DNA from: a virus
Taxonomy: Duplodnaviria > Heunggongvirae > Uroviricota > Caudoviricetes
DNA length: 44,370 nucleotides
Direction: 5' to 3' (one strand)
IMG/VR virus record: IMGVR_UViG_3300045988_005581
Part shown: positions 2,409 to 20,311 of the stretch, piece after piece
Layout of the letters: each line of letters starts with the position of its first letter
Numbering within the stretch: position 1 is the stretch's first letter
Made by a program: the position numbers and the translations under genes
Notes under the pieces: model-generated
Database searches by the model: none
What the model saw: the letters and a program-made list of their open reading frames with translations, nothing else
What the model was told of the DNA's origin: nothing

Positions 2409-2918
2409 ATGAAGCTGAAACTTAAGCAGCCATCGCCAGAGGTGGTACAAGCTGCACATGAAGAAGCTGTTAGCGCAAACCGTCGCCGTAAACGACCGCG
2501 CGGTAAACAGAGCCTTTATCAATCATCCCGTAATTCCGCCGCGTTGTGGGACCCGGGCTATTGCGATGCACTAATCGAGTTCTTCGACCGCACGTCGTGG
2601 GAGCTTGTGCCTACGTCTAAGGGTGACGAACGCCCGCTGATTCAGGATAAACCACCGTCACTGGCCCGCTTCGCCTTACACATCGGAGTCACTATCCCGA
2701 TTATTAAGCTTTGGCTGCGTGAGATTCCCGCATTTGCAGAAGCCTGGGAGACAGCACAGGCGCTGGAAGAGGCATACTTCACTGAAACGGGGGCCGCGGG
2801 CATCTCTGCTACGTTTGCTGCCGCGAAACTGGGCCTGAATAAAACAGTTGTCGCCGAAGAAGTACGCGACGAGCCAATCAGCGAAGTAACAATTAAGGTG
2901 GTGTCCGGTGAACGTTAA
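2409..2918 (+). CDS. terminase small subunit (putative)
   Basis: ATG 2409 with AAGGGG RBS (tool start 2370 lies upstream); basic N-terminal region; located immediately upstream of and overlapping the large terminase. Assignment by position and composition. Confidence 0.6.
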   Translation: MKLKLKQPSPEVVQAAHEEAVSANRRRKRPRGKQSLYQSSRNSAALWDPGYCDALIEFFDRTSWELVPTSKGDERPLIQDKPPSLARFALHIGVTIPIIKLWLREIPAFAEAWETAQALEEAYFTETGAAGISATFAAAKLGLNKTVVAEEVRDEPISEVTIKVVSGER

Positions 2919-4179
2919 TATCACGGCAACGGAGCCGCAAGGCGCGTTTCTCGGTATGCATTGCAAGTTTCCGGCATTCGTAGCTGGCTTCGGTACGGGT
3001 AAATCCGAAGTTATGTGCAACTCTGCACTACTCGACAGCATGGAAGGTGGTAGCGATTCTATCATCGCCATGTATGAGCCGACTTATGACCTGGTGCGCC
3101 TCATCCTTGCACCGCGTATGGAAGAAAAGCTCACCGACTGGGGTATCCGGTACAAATACAACAAGTCTGACAACATAATCTATACGTCTTCCGGACAATT
3201 TGGGGATTTTGTTCTGCGTACACTTGATAATCCAGCACGAATCGTTGGCTACGAATCGTTTCGTGCGAAAATCGACGAGTTGGACACCCTTAACATGGAG
3301 CACGCCGAGCACGCGTGGAACAAAGTCATCGCCCGTAACCGCCAGTTGCCGCGGACATATAAACCTATTACACCGAAACCTGCTAATACCGTTTCCGTGT
3401 TCACTACCCCGGAAGGATTCCGTTTCGTACATGACCGCTGGGTAGTCAAAAAGAATCCAGGCTACGAGATGATTCAGGCGTCCACCCTGTCTAACCCGTT
3501 CCTGCCAGAAGATTATGTGCAGTCGTTACGCGACACATACCCAGGTCAGTTGATTGACGCCTACATCAACGGCGAGTTCGTCAACCTGACGGCGGGGACT
3601 GTCTATTACGCCTATGACCGCAGGAAAAACAGCAGCCGCGAAACAATAAAACCAGGCGAGACTCTGTATATCGGGCAGGACTTTAACGTAGGCCACATGG
3701 CTAGTACAGTTTACGTGCAACGTGGCAAAGTCTGGCATGCAGTCGCCGAGTTGGTGGATATGTTCGATACGCCCGATGTGGTGAGAGCCGTAACAGAGCG
3801 CTGGAAAAGTAAGGGCCACTATATCGTTATGTACCCCGACGCAAGCGGTAAAAACCGTAAAAGTAACAACGCCAGCACATCTGATATCGCCCAGTTACAG
3901 CAGGCCGGCTTCGAAGTGCGCGCTAAATCGACAAACCCACCGGTTAAAGACCGCGTAGCGGCGATGAATAAGGCGCTTGAATCTGGTATGGTCATGATTA
4001 ATGAACAGGCTTGCCCTGTTACCGCACGATGCCTGGAGCAACAGGCTTACGACAAGAACGGCGAACCGGATAAATCAGGCGGTGTGGACCACCAGAATGA
4101 TGGAACCACATACCCTATCGCGTATGAAATGCCGATTCGCAAACCAGTTATTAACGTCCCGGTGACTTTCGCACTTTAA
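2908..4179 (+). CDS. terminase large subunit
   Basis: Walker A-like GFGTGKS near the N-terminus, 423 aa, followed by portal gene. Tool start is GTG 2908; alternative ATG at 2956. Confidence 0.85.
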   Translation: MNVNITATEPQGAFLGMHCKFPAFVAGFGTGKSEVMCNSALLDSMEGGSDSIIAMYEPTYDLVRLILAPRMEEKLTDWGIRYKYNKSDNIIYTSSGQFGDFVLRTLDNPARIVGYESFRAKIDELDTLNMEHAEHAWNKVIARNRQLPRTYKPITPKPANTVSVFTTPEGFRFVHDRWVVKKNPGYEMIQASTLSNPFLPEDYVQSLRDTYPGQLIDAYINGEFVNLTAGTVYYAYDRRKNSSRETIKPGETLYIGQDFNVGHMASTVYVQRGKVWHAVAELVDMFDTPDVVRAVTERWKSKGHYIVMYPDASGKNRKSNNASTSDIAQLQQAGFEVRAKSTNPPVKDRVAAMNKALESGMVMINEQACPVTARCLEQQAYDKNGEPDKSGGVDHQNDGTTYPIAYEMPIRKPVINVPVTFAL

Positions 4180-13009: not shown

Positions 13010-13422
13010 TGGGCTACTTTGAGGACTTAACAAAAGCGTTTGATGTGCCGCTGGTAGCCTTCGGAACCACCAACGGAATCAAGGTAGCGCTTGAAAACAT
13101 CGACGCGCCGACGTCAACAGATACGCCGTATCTGGCAAGTTACATGTTGCTGGCGGATACCGAGCAGGCTGACTTATTCTTCACGGAACAACGCGCCGGT
13201 GTCTATCAGATAGACATTAACTACGCATCGGTGAAAGGTAGCGCGCCAATCAATAAAATGGCAGACTTACTTAACACGGCGTTTAAATCAGGTAAGGCAT
13301 TTTCGCGTAACGACATCTGCGCCGAGGTTCAATCGGTTAGCCTGGGGCCGCTGATTGTAGAAAACGGATGGGCCAAACGACCATTGTCAATTAACTTTAT
13401 TGCATTCACCAAGAGGCTGTGA
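13006..13422 (+). CDS. tail terminator protein (putative)
   Basis: 138 aa directly upstream of the major tail protein gene; assignment by synteny. Confidence 0.5.
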   Translation: MMGYFEDLTKAFDVPLVAFGTTNGIKVALENIDAPTSTDTPYLASYMLLADTEQADLFFTEQRAGVYQIDINYASVKGSAPINKMADLLNTAFKSGKAFSRNDICAEVQSVSLGPLIVENGWAKRPLSINFIAFTKRL

Positions 13423-13424
13423 AT

Positions 13425-14591
13425 ATGGCTACAACTCCTTTTAAGGGCGCGAATACCGCGCAATTCTATGTGGCGGAAACTACCCCTGGCGTAACACCGA
13501 CTAACCCGGTATGGTCGCCGTTGCGTAACACGGGCGGCGTTCCCGCTGTAACCCGCGATGCACTGACTTCCAACGAACTGGACGGCAGCCGTGAAACTAC
13601 ATCCATCCGAACCGGTAACAAGCAGGTTAGCGGGGAGTATGCCATCGAACTTAGCTCTCGTAGCCAGGATGATTTCCTTGCGGGAGCGATGACTTCTACG
13701 TGGCAAGCTGGGGTAGAGATTACTGGCGCCGAAATTACGGTCGCCCCAGCAGGTAAAACATTCACCCGCGCTGCTGGTAGCTTCATTACTGGCGGTGTAG
13801 AAGTTGGCGACCTTATTGCGTTCACCGACTTAACCGGCGACAACGCAAAACCGTTTATCGTGACCGCGGTTTCCGCTCTGGTAGTTACGGGCGCAGGTAT
13901 TCAGCACACGCTGACAGCAGAGACAGTAACCACTGACGCAAAAACTGGCGACAAGCTGGAAACCGGTAACGCGTGTAAGACGTTCTCCATCCTGACGTGG
14001 TTCAAGGGCCAGTGTGGTAACCCGGACGCGTACATGCTGACCAAAGGTGTGGAAATCTCTGGCTTTACCGTAGAGCAGGCGGTTAACGCCATGGTCACCG
14101 GCAGCTTCCCGTTCATCGGCCTTAGTCAGGAGATTCTTACCGCGCCGCCGTCTGGCTCTGATTTCTCTCAGGTTACGTTCACCGATGAGCCGTTCTCGTC
14201 GGTAGATGTGTCGGTGTTCGATGGCTCCACGCCGTTGCGTTGCGATACTCTCACCATCACCAACGACAACGGAGCTTCCGCGCAGTTCGAACTCGGTAAC
14301 AGTAGCGTGGCGTTCGTCGAACGTGGACGCGCAGCTAACACATTCTCTATCTCTGGCAAGCTGTACGACATGGCGATGATTCAGAAGTTTATCAACGAGC
14401 AGCAGGTAGAGATTAACTCTATTCTGGCAGGGGTAAACGGGGCTATGTCTTTCAGTTTGAAACGTGCAGAGCTTACGGCGGTTACACCTGAGATTGGTGG
14501 GCCTGAGTCAATCACTCAGTCCATTGAAGGCCAGGCTACCGGCAATCGGTACCAGTCGTCTATCGTAATTCAACGTATCACCTACGCATAA
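13425..14591 (+). CDS. major tail (tube) protein
   Basis: ATG 13425 with AAGAGG RBS (tool start 13419 is GTG); about 388 aa, Thr/Gly/Ser-rich; followed by a strong terminator and precedes the chaperone/tape-measure genes. Confidence 0.7.
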   Translation: MATTPFKGANTAQFYVAETTPGVTPTNPVWSPLRNTGGVPAVTRDALTSNELDGSRETTSIRTGNKQVSGEYAIELSSRSQDDFLAGAMTSTWQAGVEITGAEITVAPAGKTFTRAAGSFITGGVEVGDLIAFTDLTGDNAKPFIVTAVSALVVTGAGIQHTLTAETVTTDAKTGDKLETGNACKTFSILTWFKGQCGNPDAYMLTKGVEISGFTVEQAVNAMVTGSFPFIGLSQEILTAPPSGSDFSQVTFTDEPFSSVDVSVFDGSTPLRCDTLTITNDNGASAQFELGNSSVAFVERGRAANTFSISGKLYDMAMIQKFINEQQVEINSILAGVNGAMSFSLKRAELTAVTPEIGGPESITQSIEGQATGNRYQSSIVIQRITYA

Positions 14592-14596
14592 AACTA

Positions 14597-14620
14597 AGGC
14601 CCCTTTCGGGGCCTTTTTCT
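14597..14620. terminator. bidirectional intrinsic terminator
   Basis: AGGCCCC (14597-14603) / GGGGCCT (14608-14614), loop TTTC, T-runs on both strands; separates the tail-shaft operon from the convergent minus-strand cassette. Confidence 0.7.
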
Positions 14621-15174
14621 TACAAACCTAATTTTAAAGCAATGTCTATAACGTTCGATTTAACGTCACCCGGTATGATGTAGGTGTCGTAATCTTTTAC
14701 ACCACTAACATCGTACAGATAGCCACGGCTATCGCAGATGAACGTATAGCCGTCACGATGGAGGCGGACGATTCGCACGTCATGCCCCGCGGCGACGATA
14801 GGGGCAACTTCACTGGCGAATCCACCATCGGACACTACAAAAACTTCGTCGCCGTCAGGCAAGTTTTCAGCAAGATACTTACCGAAATAATCATCGCCGA
14901 ATACCGGTTTAATGAATTGCTCAGAAATGGCAATCATTAACCGGCGGCGGGACAACCCATTAAGAAAACCCTCGGGTTTTTCTTTCCGCGCCCGGTCGTC
15001 GTAGCCGTCGAGAAATTCGTGGTAAGCATCCTGGCCTAACGCTGCCAAAGCAATATTGAACATTGGATTCTTGAAACTGGTAGTTCCTTTCGCAAAGCCC
15101 ATTTCTACCAGCGCCATAGCAAGCGTGTCTTTCCCGCAACCCGCAGGGCCATTAAGAATAATTACCTTAGCCAT
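14620..15174 (-). CDS. deoxynucleoside monophosphate kinase-like P-loop kinase
   Basis: P-loop GPAGCGKDT near the N-terminus; the GKDT variant and overall spacing resemble T4 gp1-type dNMP kinases (recalled, not aligned). 184 aa. Confidence 0.65.
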   Translation of the reverse strand: MAKVIILNGPAGCGKDTLAMALVEMGFAKGTTSFKNPMFNIALAALGQDAYHEFLDGYDDRARKEKPEGFLNGLSRRRLMIAISEQFIKPVFGDDYFGKYLAENLPDGDEVFVVSDGGFASEVAPIVAAGHDVRIVRLHRDGYTFICDSRGYLYDVSGVKDYDTYIIPGDVKSNVIDIALKLGL

Positions 15175-15662
15175 TATTTATCGCTCCCGTGTGGTTTTAA
15201 GTGTGTAGAGTTCCCGTTACAGTCGTATTCGGTAACTGCGTGTGCGGTTATGCCGAGGTCACGGAAATGCTTTATTACCGCTGGAGAGTCGTCGAACGCA
15301 CACAAGATTCTTTCCAGTCCGAAAGCACGCAACACCTCTTCTTTAATTACGATGTCTTTTCTGTTGTCGTGTTTGCTGCGCATGATTAGCGTGTCAAACC
15401 TAACGTTATTCTCTCGTAACCATTCGCGAGTCTCCTCCTCAGCGTCATCACTTCGCCCGGTAAGGATAATTATAGTAAGTCCGGAATGCCACAGTACGCT
15501 ACACAAATGGATATTGTCGTATATCGGAGCGTCATCTTTGCAGGCCATGTTAAATGGCTTCCACGCCCACGTTTCTCCGTAGTTATCTTTTGGTAACAGG
15601 TGTAAGCGATGGGTACCGTCAGCCAATGTCCCGTCTAAATCGAAAATTACAATATCTTTCAT
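15174..15662 (-). CDS. HAD-superfamily phosphatase
   Basis: N-terminal DLDGTL (HAD motif I, DxDxT); 162 aa; TAATG-coupled to the kinase gene. Confidence 0.7.
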   Translation of the reverse strand: MKDIVIFDLDGTLADGTHRLHLLPKDNYGETWAWKPFNMACKDDAPIYDNIHLCSVLWHSGLTIIILTGRSDDAEEETREWLRENNVRFDTLIMRSKHDNRKDIVIKEEVLRAFGLERILCAFDDSPAVIKHFRDLGITAHAVTEYDCNGNSTHLKPHGSDK

Positions 15663-16789
15663 CCCAGCATCTCCGGTGAAATAGTTAAACGTGCGACCTC
15701 GCCATATTCGGCGCTATAAGTAATTACATTTGCACTGCGGCCCGACATCCATCCGCCGCGAGAGGCGTAGGCGTCTTTAGCCGCTAAGGTGCGGTGTTGC
15801 TCAACAATCATGTTACGGCTTTCTACAATCTTCTGGTGGTGCAGATGGCCTACGTGGGCGTAGCTGTAAACACTCTCGCCGAACGCTTTACGGAACTTGG
15901 CAATCATAACCGGTTCGATAGCGTCGAATCGTGCTTTATGCCCGTGATGGAAGAACAGCGTCGTTTTGCCGTGTTGCACCATCTTGTAAACATCCGGCGA
16001 CGTATCGACGAACACGCGCGGCTCATTGTCGTACAGCGTACTGAACATCTCAGCCAACCAAATCATACCCGATTCGTCGTGATTCCCTTGCACGATAAGC
16101 AAGCGAACATTTTTATGCTTAACCAACGCCATATCAACGACACGGCGGACCATACGAATCATGTAACGGACCAGTTTCTGATAGCGCGTGTCAGCGTCAA
16201 GGACATGACCGCTTGCGGGCGTAACGGCATCAAGACTATCGAAGTGCGCTAAGTCGCCAAGAAGATTGATAACCCCAGTACCGGCATCCGGTGCTTTCTG
16301 GAATGCTGCATCGAACCAACGAGAGAACAGGTCTTCCGCAATCTTCATGTCCCAGTCGTCGCCGCTCTCGTCGGCCCAGGCCAGCATACCGAGATGGAAA
16401 TCGGATACAGTGTAAAGATTGAGCAGCTTATCGTCCCGTTTGGCACGAACGGCTTTAACAGGTGCAACGGGCGTAATCTCCGATTTCATGCCTTCGATCA
16501 CGGCTTTCATCAATTCAACCTGACGTTCGGCGTCAGTGTCGGTCTTAACCCATTGCAACTTAGTGTTGCCGAACTCATCCACCAGTGACGACGTTCCTTT
16601 AATCTTATAGCCGTCCGGGACAAGGTGGCTAACATCACGTCCGTGACCTACACCTTTCTTAGCCAGCTTCGCTTTACGGATACGAATTACGCGGTCTGAG
16701 ATGCCGTATTTACGGGCGATGTCTACATTCTTCATTCCGGCGTTCAATTCTTCCTGTAACTGTTCGTCGGTTATTTTCTTCCGGGCCAT
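15659..16789 (-). CDS. calcineurin-like metallophosphoesterase with N-terminal HTH-like domain
   Basis: Motifs SDFH, GDLAHFD, GNHDE, HHGH and GHLHH match metallophosphoesterase signatures; N-terminal NVDIARKYGISDRVIR is HTH-like. RBS GAGGAAG. Confidence 0.75.
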   Translation of the reverse strand: MARKKITDEQLQEELNAGMKNVDIARKYGISDRVIRIRKAKLAKKGVGHGRDVSHLVPDGYKIKGTSSLVDEFGNTKLQWVKTDTDAERQVELMKAVIEGMKSEITPVAPVKAVRAKRDDKLLNLYTVSDFHLGMLAWADESGDDWDMKIAEDLFSRWFDAAFQKAPDAGTGVINLLGDLAHFDSLDAVTPASGHVLDADTRYQKLVRYMIRMVRRVVDMALVKHKNVRLLIVQGNHDESGMIWLAEMFSTLYDNEPRVFVDTSPDVYKMVQHGKTTLFFHHGHKARFDAIEPVMIAKFRKAFGESVYSYAHVGHLHHQKIVESRNMIVEQHRTLAAKDAYASRGGWMSGRSANVITYSAEYGEVARLTISPEMLG

Positions 16790-16827
16790 GCTTACTTCCT
16801 CGTGTTTAGGATTTGTCTTATAGTAGC

Positions 16828-17019
16828 CTACTTCTCTTTCACGTTCGAGTTACAAGCCCAGATTAAAATGAATACCCACGGCAACAGAACCCACCCGAGA
16901 AATAAGTTAGCCATGAATATCGCTAGCTTTGCTTTATGGTTTCGCATATGGGCCACAAAAAACGGGATAAAATAAACGCCTACAACAATAATTAAAAAGA
17001 ACATAGCGATACCGGTCAT
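16828..17019 (-). CDS. superinfection-immunity-like small membrane protein
   Basis: Two TM segments with YFIPFFVAHMRNH...LFLGWVLLPWVFILIWA, resembling the Imm_superinfect family signature from memory. ATG 17019 with AGGAG RBS (tool start 17046 upstream). Confidence 0.6.
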   Translation of the reverse strand: MTGIAMFFLIIVVGVYFIPFFVAHMRNHKAKLAIFMANLFLGWVLLPWVFILIWACNSNVKEK

Positions 17020-17061
17020 AACATAACTCCTGATTTGAGATAACATCGTTGGTGTAAGTGA

Positions 17062-17090
17062 ATAGTACGCTATTATATCAGGGTGTGCAA
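17062..17090 (-). promoter_or_regulatory. sigma70-like promoter TTGCAC-N17-TACTAT (minus strand) with embedded dyad
   Basis: TTGCAC = 17085-17090, TACTAT = 17062-17067 on the minus strand; dyad AATAG-N4-CTATT 17061-17074; near-identical to the element at 7505-7540. Confidence 0.5.
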
Positions 17091-17197
17091 GTAGTATGTT
17101 AGAATAATTTTGCGCCTAGTGTCGCACACGAAAAGCGGGTGGTTCCCGTCTGGCGCATTTCCTTTAACCAGTAACCTCTTAACCAAAGGATTAAAGA

Positions 17198-17614
17198 ATG
17201 AAACTTTCTGATTTTTATTACGAAGCTGAAGCTGAAAAGGGTGCACGTATGCCGATACCATTAAAAGACGGTACCGATTCCGGGGAATGGCTTAATGTTG
17301 TTTCTCCTGAGGCAGACGTTGCCGTTAAGGCTATGCGCGCGTTCACCCTTGCATACCGGGCAGTGTTAGGGAAATTAAAACCGCTTCGTGATAAGTGCGA
17401 AGAGATGAAAGATTTCTCTGAATACAACCTGAAGATGGAAGACGCGGCGACGGACCTTAACCGTCAGTTAGCGGTTGAATTGGTTAACGGGTGGAGCCTT
17501 GACGACGAATTCAATAAAGAGAATCTGAACACACTCCTGACGCAATATAAACGACTCGCGGAACTTGTTGTTGTGTTTCATAACGAACAACTGCACCAGC
17601 TACAGGAAAAGTAG
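17198..17614 (+). CDS. tail assembly chaperone (G-like)
   Basis: 138 aa immediately upstream of the tape-measure gene, RBS AAGGA; the -1 frame stays open through its 3' end. Confidence 0.6.
   Translation: MKLSDFYYEAEAEKGARMPIPLKDGTDSGEWLNVVSPEADVAVKAMRAFTLAYRAVLGKLKPLRDKCEEMKDFSEYNLKMEDAATDLNRQLAVELVNGWSLDDEFNKENLNTLLTQYKRLAELVVVFHNEQLHQLQEK
17605..17611 (+). promoter_or_regulatory. putative -1 programmed ribosomal frameshift site (G GAA AAG)
   Basis: Heptamer GGAAAAG ends one codon before the chaperone stop (TAG 17612-17614); the -1 frame is open from 17584 to 17979. Analogous to the lambda G/GT site GGGAAAG. Confidence 0.35.
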
Positions 17615-17619
17615 ACGCG

Positions 17620-17979
17620 TTGCTCCAGTTCGCCCGTTGGAACTTCATAACCCGCCACAAACGGCGGGAATTTGACAGTATCGCCGATGGGCATAAAGCC
17701 GCGCTAATTGCTATGGGGGTTATGCAAGACGCGCCGGACGCAACGCAGGCCACTGGGCCGGAATGCCCCCCTGAACTACTAACCACATTTGAGAAGTACA
17801 GGGAAATTAAATTCACCCGCCGAGTGGACGACGACGGCATCAAGATGTACCCGCGCGAGCAATTACGATGGTCAGATTTAGTGGCGTACAGCACCGTTTC
17901 AGGCCAGAATATAGGGATGTTCGAATCTGACATCATCATGAGCTTAGACGCTATTTTCGAGGGTAGAAACGATGGCTGA
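17620..17979 (+). CDS. tail assembly chaperone frameshift extension (T-like)
   Basis: ORF in the -1 frame relative to 17198..17614, no convincing independent start (tool start is TTG); ends overlapping the tape-measure start. Confidence 0.45.
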   Translation: MLQFARWNFITRHKRREFDSIADGHKAALIAMGVMQDAPDATQATGPECPPELLTTFEKYREIKFTRRVDDDGIKMYPREQLRWSDLVAYSTVSGQNIGMFESDIIMSLDAIFEGRNDG

Positions 17980-20311
17980 TGTAGCTAGTTTAGTCGTAAA
18001 AGTATCAGAGCAAGGCGCGAAAGCCACATCAGACCGTCTTGATAATCTTTCAAAGTCCGCAAAAGTAGCGGGGGCCGCCGTAGCAGGCCTCGCTTCTATC
18101 GTAGCGGCTACCGCGTATAAAGCCGCCCAAGAACTAGTTGACTCACAGCGGCAACTGGACAAGATGTCCGCCAGTTTGAAGACCTTAACCGGAAGTACCC
18201 AAGGTGCTAAACAGGCGCTAAGTATCCTGCAAGATTTTGCACGCGACACCCCATACGGACTGGAGCAGGCGGTGGAAGGCTTCCGTAAGCTGGTGGCCCT
18301 TGGCCTTACCCCATCCGAGGAGGCGTTGCGGTCCTACGGCAATACCGCATCGGCTATGGGTAAGGACCTTAATCAGATGATTGAGGCGGTAGCCGACGCC
18401 AGTACGTTTGAGTTCGAACGCCTCAAAGAATTCGGCATCAAAGCCAAGCAGAACAAAACCGACGTAGAGTTTACGTTCCAGGGAACGACAACCGTAGTTA
18501 AGAAAAGCGCTGCCGATATTGAGCAGTATTTACTTAACATTGGTAACGTAAATTTTGCGGGGGCTATGGCTGACCAGGCCAACACCCTTAACGGCGCTAT
18601 CGCGAGTGCCAGTGACTCATGGTCGCAGCTAAAAATGACGCTTGCCACCAGTCTTGATGTTGGCGCACTTGCTGAACCTATCAGGTATATCGATGACTTG
18701 ATTCAGGAATTAAACGCGTCTGTTGCTTCCGGTGAATTAGCCGCTGAAATGCAGATGTGGGGGAACATCGCGTCGGAAGTAGGAAGCGCTATCGAGATGT
18801 CATTCGACGCTGCGTTTGGCTTTGTTGGCGATGCCATCAACGGGCTTAATGAACTGTGGGATTTCAGCAGCAAGAGTATTACGGATAGCGGAGAACAAAC
18901 GGCTACTACCATCGCTGAATCCGCCGCCGATGCGCTTGACTTCATCGCGGAAGAGTTCACCGCGATGGAGAGATTCTTTGAAGATATGGTTAAAGGCGCG
19001 CAGGACGCGGGCCGTCTTGTACGAGCCGCTTTTACCCCCGGGGAATCAGTAGACGTAGCTAAAAATATCAACTTCCAGCTTGGCCTGGCTTTGGATACCC
19101 AGCGCGATGTCGCCGACGTTACGCGTAAAAGTTTCCGCGAACAGGTAGAAGCTCAACAGGATATTGTAGCGTTAAAACGCGCGGCGTATGACATCGATAA
19201 GGAGTCCGCAAAAGCTGAGGGGTTAAACAAATTTAAGGTAACCGGAACTGGCGGCGGTTCTGACGATGACGGGTCAGCCGCAAAAGCCGCTAAGAAAGCG
19301 GCGGACGCGTTCGAGCGCCAGAAAAAAGCGGCGGAAGACTTCTACTATCAGTCAATCCATCTTAATGATGACGTATTTCAGAAAATAGAAGCTAACCAGG
19401 AAGAGCAACTGTCTAAGTTGCAGGACTTCTATAGCAATAAGCTTCTTAGCGACCAACAGTACGAAAACGCCAAGACGCAGATTATGTTATCCGCGGAACA
19501 GGCCCGCCAGGAAGAACTGGATAAGAAAAGGAAGGAGGCCCAGGAGAATCGGCAGAAAGGCGAGGATTTCATGGCTCAGATTATGGGTCAGAACGCCACC
19601 GAGCTTGAGCTTCTGGATATTCAGGAACAGCAGAAACTGGCAGTAGCCGATAAGTACCGTGAACAGGGTCTTATTAGCGAGAAGCAGTATCAGGCCACGC
19701 TTAACGCCATCAACGAGCAGTACGCAACCAAGCGAGCCGATGCAACGGCAACCGCTTTCGGCAACATGGCGTCCAATATTGGGTCCGCGTTAGGGGAGGC
19801 ATCCGGGGCTTATAAGGCGTTCGCTATTGTACAGGCCACTATCGCTACGTACACTGCAGCTATTGAGGCGTACAAATCTACAGCGGCTATCCCGGTTGTC
19901 GGGCCGTTCCTCGCACCGGTAGCCGCTGCCGCTGCCGTTGGCGCAGGCATGGCGCAGGTTTCCGCTATCCGGTCTGCGCGAGAGCAGGGCGGTCAGTTAT
20001 CCGCAGGGCAGGCATCGACCATCGCAGAACGTGGTAAACCAGAAGTTATCATGCCGGCTGGCGCATCTCGTGTACGAACTGCGCAGCAGATGAAAGAAAT
20101 TATGGGGCAAAACGGGTCTTCTTCCGGCCCGTCTAATGTTACCATCGTAAACAACACGAGTTCTCAAATCGGCAACGTATCCACTGAACAGGATGATGAA
20201 GGCCGTCTACGCATCATCATAGAAGAGCAAGTTGCTGCATCTTTGCAGAACAGCAACAGTAAGATTAGCAAGGCCCGCAAGGCCACAAGAAATGCGCCGG
20301 GGTTCAAATAA
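17972..20311 (+). CDS. tail tape measure protein
   Basis: 779 aa, longest gene of the tail block, Ala/Gln/Glu-rich with coiled-coil character and a hydrophobic Gly/Ala-rich segment (AAIPVVGPFLAPVAAAAAVGAGMA). Confidence 0.8.
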   Translation: MADVASLVVKVSEQGAKATSDRLDNLSKSAKVAGAAVAGLASIVAATAYKAAQELVDSQRQLDKMSASLKTLTGSTQGAKQALSILQDFARDTPYGLEQAVEGFRKLVALGLTPSEEALRSYGNTASAMGKDLNQMIEAVADASTFEFERLKEFGIKAKQNKTDVEFTFQGTTTVVKKSAADIEQYLLNIGNVNFAGAMADQANTLNGAIASASDSWSQLKMTLATSLDVGALAEPIRYIDDLIQELNASVASGELAAEMQMWGNIASEVGSAIEMSFDAAFGFVGDAINGLNELWDFSSKSITDSGEQTATTIAESAADALDFIAEEFTAMERFFEDMVKGAQDAGRLVRAAFTPGESVDVAKNINFQLGLALDTQRDVADVTRKSFREQVEAQQDIVALKRAAYDIDKESAKAEGLNKFKVTGTGGGSDDDGSAAKAAKKAADAFERQKKAAEDFYYQSIHLNDDVFQKIEANQEEQLSKLQDFYSNKLLSDQQYENAKTQIMLSAEQARQEELDKKRKEAQENRQKGEDFMAQIMGQNATELELLDIQEQQKLAVADKYREQGLISEKQYQATLNAINEQYATKRADATATAFGNMASNIGSALGEASGAYKAFAIVQATIATYTAAIEAYKSTAAIPVVGPFLAPVAAAAAVGAGMAQVSAIRSAREQGGQLSAGQASTIAERGKPEVIMPAGASRVRTAQQMKEIMGQNGSSSGPSNVTIVNNTSSQIGNVSTEQDDEGRLRIIIEEQVAASLQNSNSKISKARKATRNAPGFK

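Follow-up and report, generated by a model that had tools for sequence, protein, structure and literature searches.

The tail assembly chaperone locus

Directly upstream of the tape measure gene in this phage genome lie two overlapping reading frames, here called G and T, and we asked whether T is read by ribosomes that slip back one base at the end of G or is translated from a start of its own. The DNA analysed, referred to as the window, is the whole stretch of 44,370 nucleotides (IMG/VR record IMGVR_UViG_3300045988_005581). It belongs to Kagunavirus (Guernseyvirinae) and has 98% identity to Escherichia phage Golestan over the G/T kilobase, for which matches were found in 485 phage records. 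The features that bear on the question are the following.

13419..14591, + strand: probable tail tube (major tail) gene (PHROG 290, E=3.6e-80)
14620-17046, antisense: four-gene cassette between the tube candidate and G
17198..17614, + strand: gene G, tail assembly chaperone, 138 aa and 15.9 kDa by standard decoding
17584..17610, + strand: overlap in which the 0 and -1 frames are both open, limiting where a shift can happen
17605..17611, + strand: heptamer G_GAA_AAG, the slip site proposed in the initial annotation, present in the sequence
17608..17611, + strand: core slip tetramer A_AAG (tRNA-Lys, AAG to AAA)
17611..17979, + strand: T segment in the -1 frame, first codon GTA 17611-13, stop TGA 17977-79, 122 aa
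17612..17614, + strand: 0-frame stop TAG adjoining the slip codon, candidate 'shifty stop' stimulator
17972..20311, + strand: tape measure protein gene, 779 aa (PHROG 1538, E=3e-205)

The G protein matched Pfam Phage_TAC_4 (PF08748; E=9.3e-8, 32.8 bits against a cut-off of 21.1) and the T segment matched Phage_TAC_18 (PF23812; E=2.1e-18, 66.7 bits against a cut-off of 27), two different Pfam families that are both tail-assembly-chaperone families. A single 259-position profile, PHROG 15027 ('tail assembly chaperone'), covers both ORFs, i.e. a fusion with its junction at K138/V139; G aligned to its positions 1-138 (E=1.4e-50) and the T ORF to positions 136-259. The GT product predicted for the window, join(17198..17611,17611..17979), would have 260 aa and 29.8 kDa, with a junction reading ...HQLQEK-VDALLQF... 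(junction stretch ...HQLQEKVDALLQF). A sequence search of the PDB with G/T returned no meaningful relative, so that no solved structure is detectable by sequence.

The ATG of the tape measure gene overlaps the end of T (ATGGCTGA). On the other side of the pair, the tube candidate comes after the tail terminator in Golestan as annotated, and Klebsiella phage 37P2 has a homologue of it labelled 'tail tube protein'. The order in the window is tail terminator, tube candidate, antisense cassette, G, T and tape measure gene, which is the V-G-T-H arrangement of lambda with the antisense cassette as an insertion.

The proposed slip site at the end of G

The initial annotation, made from the letters of the DNA, had proposed a -1 frameshift at the terminus of the chaperone ORF, read as CAG GAA AAG TAG, with the -1 frame open from 17584 through 17979 and a TTG at 17620 in that frame. 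All three readings agree with the sequence, in which CAG (17603-05), GAA (17606-08), AAG (17609-11) and TAG (17612-14) close the ORF and TAA at 17581-83 is followed by 131 open codons in the -1 frame. The heptamer had also been described rightly as non-canonical: G_GAA_AAG has GGA where XXX is called for and so fails X_XXY_YYZ, and of its two halves A_AAG (Y_YYZ) alone is canonical. A change of pairing from GAA to GGA would require a G.U pair at the middle position. The window contains GGAAAAG six times, and shuffled sequences give an expectation of 5.7, so that the heptamer alone is not beyond chance; the site owes its significance to its position and conservation, not to the heptamer count. 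Here GGAAAAG provides the last two sense codons of G and leads into the -1 chaperone ORF. The sequence GGAAAAGTAA occurs a second time at 3803, but not in phase with the ORF there (2908-4179), and this copy was set aside as irrelevant.

Conservation of the site among relatives

Relatives were taken from 79 IMG/VR loci, by T-domain alignment, and from GenBank loci, giving 87 sequences that form 17 clusters at 70% or lower T identity; identity between T domains went down to ~43%. The tetramer A_AAG was invariant in 17/17 clusters, with a per-position entropy of 0 at -3 to +1 among 69 distinct sequences. The Lys codon before the shift was AAG in 69/69 of these and never AAA. The codon before AAG had a wobble A in all 69, though it is GAA, GCA, TCA, AAA or GGA and variously encodes E, A, S, K or G. 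Judged by this pattern, A_AAG is conserved beyond the coding requirement. A stop codon adjoined AAG in 62/63 distinct sequences and in 16/17 clusters. This stop was TAG or TAA and never TGA, though GTG-A would also give the conserved Val; in the window, TAG terminates only 3 of the 45 long ORFs.

The heptamer as a whole was less uniform. Among the 63 distinct sequences it was GGAAAAG in 49, CGCAAAG in 5, AGCAAAG in 4, AAAAAAG in 2, and GGCAAAG, GTCAAAG and GGGAAAG in one each, the last (relative L094) being the exact G_GGA_AAG of lambda. Where the upstream codon is GCA or TCA, -1 re-pairing of its tRNA is impossible, and therefore a single tRNA-Lys slip must suffice family-wide. Where it is GAA, AAA or GGA, the preceding base permits re-pairing without exception (64 distinct flanking sequences of this kind); every relative with GAA has the first G, and the re-pairing base is kept across the preceding codons CAG, CTG, TCG, ATG, GCG, AAG and GCA. 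The base before an upstream GCA is C, A or G. Since the preceding base always permits re-pairing, the two-tRNA slip of the initial annotation is a reasonable reading for the window, but its heptamer is not the common denominator of the family; A_AAG with the adjacent stop is what stays constant. In several relatives there are just 15 nt of open -1 frame ahead of the Val codon, so that any shift must fall within the final five codons of G.

Conservation was also found beyond the stop. The two codons GCG YTG, codons 3-4 of T (17617..17622, +6 to +11; GCG TTG in the window), have invariant wobble bases, with GCG in 68/68 and YTG in 69/69 distinct relatives (CTG 56, TTG 13), unlike the other conserved T residues, whose wobble entropy is 0.9-1.9 bits. 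The invariance of GCG YUG is not accounted for by the slippage model. Candidate explanations are an influence of the 3' context on termination or slippage, selection for rapid post-shift decoding, a cryptic reinitiation codon or a recombination boundary.

Stimulatory elements

No SD-like stimulator was found 6-17 nt upstream of the site (17588-17604 is CAACTGCACCAGCTACA, with no GGAG, AGGA or GAGG), and the upstream sequence varies freely among relatives; the SD-like upstream element of dnaX-type sites thus has no counterpart here. Nor was a conserved downstream structure detected when 23 diverse sequences were examined with RNAalifold (3 pairs, -0.67 kcal/mol, no covariation). Single-sequence folds of 19 sequences, at 45 and 70 nt, were mostly not significant (z -2.6 to +1.6), and only the 70-nt fold of one relative (L062) passed z -2. 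Two candidate structures were rejected. A recurrent GCUGU/ACAGC pairing is lost where Ser23 is replaced, with no compensating change, and a fold of the window at 17632-17692 (-30.7 kcal/mol, z -2.7) starts 20 nt past the slip site and is lineage-specific, hence not a feature of the family. An Rfam search of 17400-17900 at E<=10 gave no match. Downstream, the conserved feature is linear (GCGYUG).

Distant relatives

Four distant homologues, with G identity of 26-46%, have retained T as a -1 ORF that runs to the beginning of the tape measure gene. Their candidate slip sites are as follows.

Klebsiella 37P2: GCA_AAG_TAG, then GCGCTG
Serratia Serbin: C_CGA_AAG, three codons before the stop; the IS1222/cdd motif
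Pseudomonas Lebethron: canonical T_TTT_TTC
Vibrio CA8: CAA_AAG and GTA_AAG, both internal

The G/T overlaps of the distant relatives are 43-118 nt long, with internal slip motifs and no stop-start arrangement. On these comparisons the system is conserved while the site architecture differs, direct adjacency of the stop being a Guernseyvirinae trait. A scan of genome contigs gave one locus, in a Bacteroidota assembly, which looks like contamination.

Annotation of the gene pair in public records

Fusions were built by re-reading the G of AAG (...QEK|VDAL...) and then looked up by exact sequence. Those built were identical to ADA82267.1/YP_009168804.1 (K1G, 'tail assembly chaperone'), QNO11738.1 (fKuEco01), and QNO11663.1 and QNO11812.1 (fFiEco03 and fPoEco01); the window's own exact GT sequence was absent from the protein collection. 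The annotated GT of these four phages comes from the same gene pair, with the same GGAAAAG TAG site and K|V junction, and fFiEco03 has ~90% DNA identity to the window here. A joined CDS labelled as a frameshift product is present in MT711524 (fFiEco03) and MT711525 (fKuEco01). Golestan, the closest relative of the window, differs from these phages in being annotated with two separate CDSs. The same holds for fEg-Eco06, KMB36, Ent2, ZCEC5, GRNsp50, EF2-1 and St162. RefSeq Golestan and many other records give a 119-aa T CDS starting at TTG 17620, and the annotated T start differs between records. The ORFs were joined in only 2 of the 16 Guernseyvirinae records examined; in the rest T is a 'hypothetical protein' or a second chaperone with an arbitrary start. 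About 500 Guernseyvirinae records carry the gene pair.

The paper on Shashou, a phage 90% identical here, describes a hypothetical protein between chaperone and tape measure and 'no canonical slippery sequence' (PMC6776780). In the Kagunavirus/Jerseyvirus literature, this negative statement was the only relevant item found when an experimental or explicit description of the site was sought. The frameshift call is already public in sister phages; most records and one paper still keep T separate.

Protein collections were also searched by homology. An exhaustive HMMER search of 1.84 billion proteins gave no in-frame G-T fusion among 75 cluster representatives, which neither proves nor disproves the fusion; it returned G-only proteins of ~133-152 aa and called T ORFs that begin at many different points. 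A homologue search with the fusion as query gave 5 matches, all of them G-only or fragments.

Alternatives to ribosomal slippage

Most GenBank and RefSeq records, Golestan included, annotate T as a protein in its own right, translated by ordinary initiation from TTG 17620 with no frameshift, an outcome that the initial annotation had named as one that would overturn its proposal. An AGGA (17604-07) lies 12 nt upstream of this TTG, and the Shashou paper's report of no canonical slippery site also favors independent initiation. The idea fails on comparison, however, as the codon is CTG in 56/69 distinct relatives. The T frame reaches its first ATG, GTG or TTG at codon 11, 13, 29-35, 48-58, 95 or 109 in most clusters, and in many relatives the first possible start falls downstream of conserved T residues (residues 3-31 are conserved, and residues 1-31 include the invariant A3, L4, A8, F21, D22, I24, G27 and H28). 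The AGGA is missing in CGCAAAG or AGCAAAG relatives, annotators pick different T starts in different genomes, and the invariant A_AAG, the use of AAG and never AAA, and the fixed -1 relation would all be left unexplained. We consider independent initiation very unlikely; from the alignments, T has no conserved start codon. Coding constraint in the -1 frame begins right at the slip site, where variability just downstream was 0.67, 0.61 and 1.33 bits for -1-frame codon positions 1, 2 and 3. Codon 1 of T is GTA (Val) in 68/69 sequences, and evidence at the protein level for translation of T codons 1-3 is weak because AAG followed by TAR forces Val1, and Ala3 is nucleotide-invariant. Termination at UAG 17612-14 with reinitiation 6 nt on at YUG (UUG or CUG) would make a low amount of free T and no fusion. 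In favor of such a restart are a stop that directly adjoins A_AAG, as well as the invariant third base of YUG and the invariant GCG before it, neither of which slippage explains, and a weak restart could yield a low T:G ratio. Yet CUG is a very poor bacterial start codon and is the form present in most lineages, the invariant A_AAG and the preceding wobble A remain unexplained, and the distant relatives, with overlaps of 43-118 nt, have no stop-start arrangement. Free T would also lose the G-T tethering that underlies lambda gpGT function (PMC5009743). Reinitiation as the source of T is, in our estimate, very unlikely. Independent initiation and reinitiation could both add some free T in the subgroup to which the window belongs.

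The fusion could also be encoded by an edited mRNA if RNA polymerase dropped one A. The site contains a short A-run (AAAA at 17607-17610), and some bacterial genes are known to yield -1 products by transcriptional slippage (PMC5009743). Stop adjacency and AAG-specific usage point to decoding instead. Moreover, the run has just four A's in the window and shrinks to three in relatives with xGCAAAG, and productive polymerase slippage is generally reported from clearly longer homopolymer runs. We regard this route as extremely improbable. Independent initiation, reinitiation and transcriptional slippage are each weaker than a -1 tRNA slip as an explanation of the locus.

Discussion

We conclude that a programmed -1 slip at A_AAG probably joins G and T into a GT fusion. 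A -1 shift is supported because the -1 relation, the G-T-tape-measure layout and the missing conserved T start hold in all relatives examined, distant ones with other slip motifs included; that slippage takes place, and at what rate, we infer from these comparisons. On A_AAG (17608-17611), where G comes to its end, a minority of the ribosomes translating the gene would move back by one base. The tRNA-Lys would re-pair from AAG to AAA, GUA (17611-13) would be read next, and the -1 frame would be translated to 17979, yielding a 260-aa GT fusion beside abundant 138-aa G. At least part of the slippage may take place while the P site is occupied by peptidyl-tRNA-Lys and the A site by a stop that is decoded slowly. 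UAG is read only by RF1; the adjacent UAG, rare as a terminator in the window genome, may slow the A site and so favor slippage of peptidyl-tRNA-Lys. In the window, re-pairing of tRNA-Glu from GAA to GGA may add efficiency. Either timing of the slip would yield the same protein. By analogy with lambda gpG/gpGT, G and GT would each be a binding partner of the tape measure protein, and GT would in addition use its T part to bring in the tail tube protein.

What is known of -1 shifting speaks on both sides of this mechanism. A_AAG is the most shift-prone tetramer of E. coli (PMC4066793), in which one tRNA-Lys serves both AAA and AAG (PMC5009743, PMC4066793). NNA_AAG is used by IS1222 and also occurs in B. 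subtilis cdd (PMC5009743), and in E. coli recoding is known to be triggered by stalling at a stop codon (PMC6815119). Against it, Z_ZZN tetramer reporters that carried no stimulator gave, as a group, ~0.15% against a background of 0.11% (PMC4066793), and a slow A-site codon is held to be more important for +1 than for -1 shifts (PMC5009743).

The initial annotation had likened the site to the lambda gpG/gpGT frameshift (Levin, Hendrix & Casjens 1993; Xu, Hendrix & Duda 2004, as presented in PMC5009743), and the likeness extends to layout, -1 overlap, missing conserved start and chaperone families. In both systems two ORFs lie right before the tape-measure gene, with T in the -1 frame, overlapping the end of G and having no conserved start or ribosome-binding site of its own; the slip would be made by tRNA-Lys on A_AAG, and both products would be non-virion chaperones. 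The differences are G_GAA_AAG here in place of X_XXY_YYZ, membership of G and T in separate Pfam families (TAC_4 and TAC_18), and the four-gene antisense cassette between the tail tube gene and G. In their 2004 work Xu et al. reportedly also accepted cases lacking the canonical motif, so that its absence here lowers the fit to the motif rule and not the fit to the system. A further difference is that the slip codon here abuts the stop, whereas the lambda shift is described as 'near the 3' end' (PMC5009743).

A closer parallel for the motif itself is given by the NNA_AAG -1 sites of IS1222 (G_CGA_AAG) and B. subtilis cdd (A_CGA_AAG) and by the A_AAG sites of the IS3 family (PMC5009743, PMC4066793). 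As at those sites, NNA_AAG is invariant while the upstream codon varies and in some lineages does not re-pair. The insertion-sequence sites depend on a downstream pseudoknot or hairpin, in contrast to the adjacent stop and linear GCGYUG with no conserved structure found here. With 'shifty stop' frameshifting (Weiss et al. 1987; prfB CUU_UGA; antizyme; as described in PMC5009743) the site shares a slip-prone P-site codon, an A-site stop and conserved adjacency of the two. The classical natural cases are +1, however, whereas the shift proposed here is -1, and conservation is what suggests a role for the stop. We put forward as a tentative and rather doubtful proposal that the Guernseyvirinae G/GT site is a structure-free -1 signal composed of NNA_AAG, a pause at UAG or UAA in the A site and a linear GCGYUG stimulator.

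The system is of a known kind, and sister phages already have this slip in their annotation. The main value of the finding is a better annotation of Guernseyvirinae G/T pairs, as the rule NNA_AAG directly before UAR would allow GT to be called consistently, including by predictors that have learned canonical motifs. What interest remains attaches to the minimal NNA_AAG_UAR architecture and the GCGYUG element: at this natural site, which is easily mutated, one can ask whether an adjacent stop or a short unstructured 3' sequence can stimulate -1 slippage. If the structure-free signal were confirmed, it would represent a '-1 shifty stop' that occurs naturally in a lytic E. coli phage.

Constraint and RNA structure downstream of the probable slip site

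Just past the slip site at which the tail assembly chaperone gene G would shift by −1 into T, the segment encoding the second chaperone domain, two features were noted:

17617–17622: T codons 3–4 (Ala-Leu), GCG TTG in the window, with an equivalent position in relatives L015–L105
17632–17692: stable local RNA fold internal to the coding sequence of T (−30.7 kcal/mol, z −2.7)
17650–17667: core hairpin of this fold, CCCGCC/GGCGGG

The third bases of the codon pair, GCG YTG, are fixed in 68–69 distinct relatives, unlike the codons for other invariant residues, which vary freely at synonymous positions. No RNA pairing partner was found for GCG YTG at 17617–17622. The fold at 17632–17692 is conserved in the closest relatives only; lying 20 nt away, too far from the slip site, and unconserved beyond those relatives, it was rejected as a feature of the family.

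The G/T layout in relatives

The arrangement of G followed by T in the −1 frame is shared by distant homologues in Serratia phage Serbin (MK608336), Pseudomonas phage Lebethron (PP954861) and Vibrio phage CA8 (MN102376), for which plausible slip-site candidates are C_CGA_AAG, T_TTT_TTC and CAA_AAG, respectively. The records of these three phages carry no frameshift annotation; T is either given an internal start or left uncalled.

Within Kagunavirus, the G/T module is mosaic. Some E. coli phages match the window over only the first 120–260 nt of the region and past that stretch carry a G/T allele 45–58% identical to that of the window; the break is near the G start.

In the old record of Salmonella phage SS3e (NC_006940.2), the G ORF is broken, with 85 aa and an end in a shifted frame; because G has 138 aa in every other Jerseyvirus relative, the break probably stems from an indel introduced in sequencing. 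In a Bacteroidota genome assembly, a 13-kb Taishania pollutisoli scaffold (NZ_JACVEL010000023.1) carries a G/T locus of the Jerseyvirus type, whose T shares 85% identity with that of the window and whose GGAAAAGTAGACGCGTTG is identical. The presence of this locus on a short Bacteroidota contig most likely reflects phage contamination of the assembly rather than a prophage. Four separate copies of the G/T region occur in PP935706.1 (Salmonella phage vB_SE130_2P, 164,642 bp), whose length is ~4 times that of a Jerseyvirus genome; the record appears to have been concatenated or mixed during assembly.

Genes flanking G and T

Within the tail module, four antisense genes separate G from the probable tail tube gene:

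14620–17046, minus strand: antisense cassette
minus strand: 184-aa ORF, 'hypothetical protein' in the Golestan annotation
minus strand: polynucleotide kinase/phosphatase-like protein
minus strand: metallophosphoesterase, annotated 'DNA repair exonuclease'
minus strand: small superinfection-immunity protein

With this cassette in between, G needs its own promoter; a simple sigma-70 scan of 16800–18100 found none. On the other side, the T stop overlaps the tape-measure start:

17972–17979: ATGGCTGA, T stop and tape-measure start

The conserved C-terminal sequence of T is ...IFEGRNDG. The tape measure gene may be translationally coupled to termination of T or of the G–T fusion.
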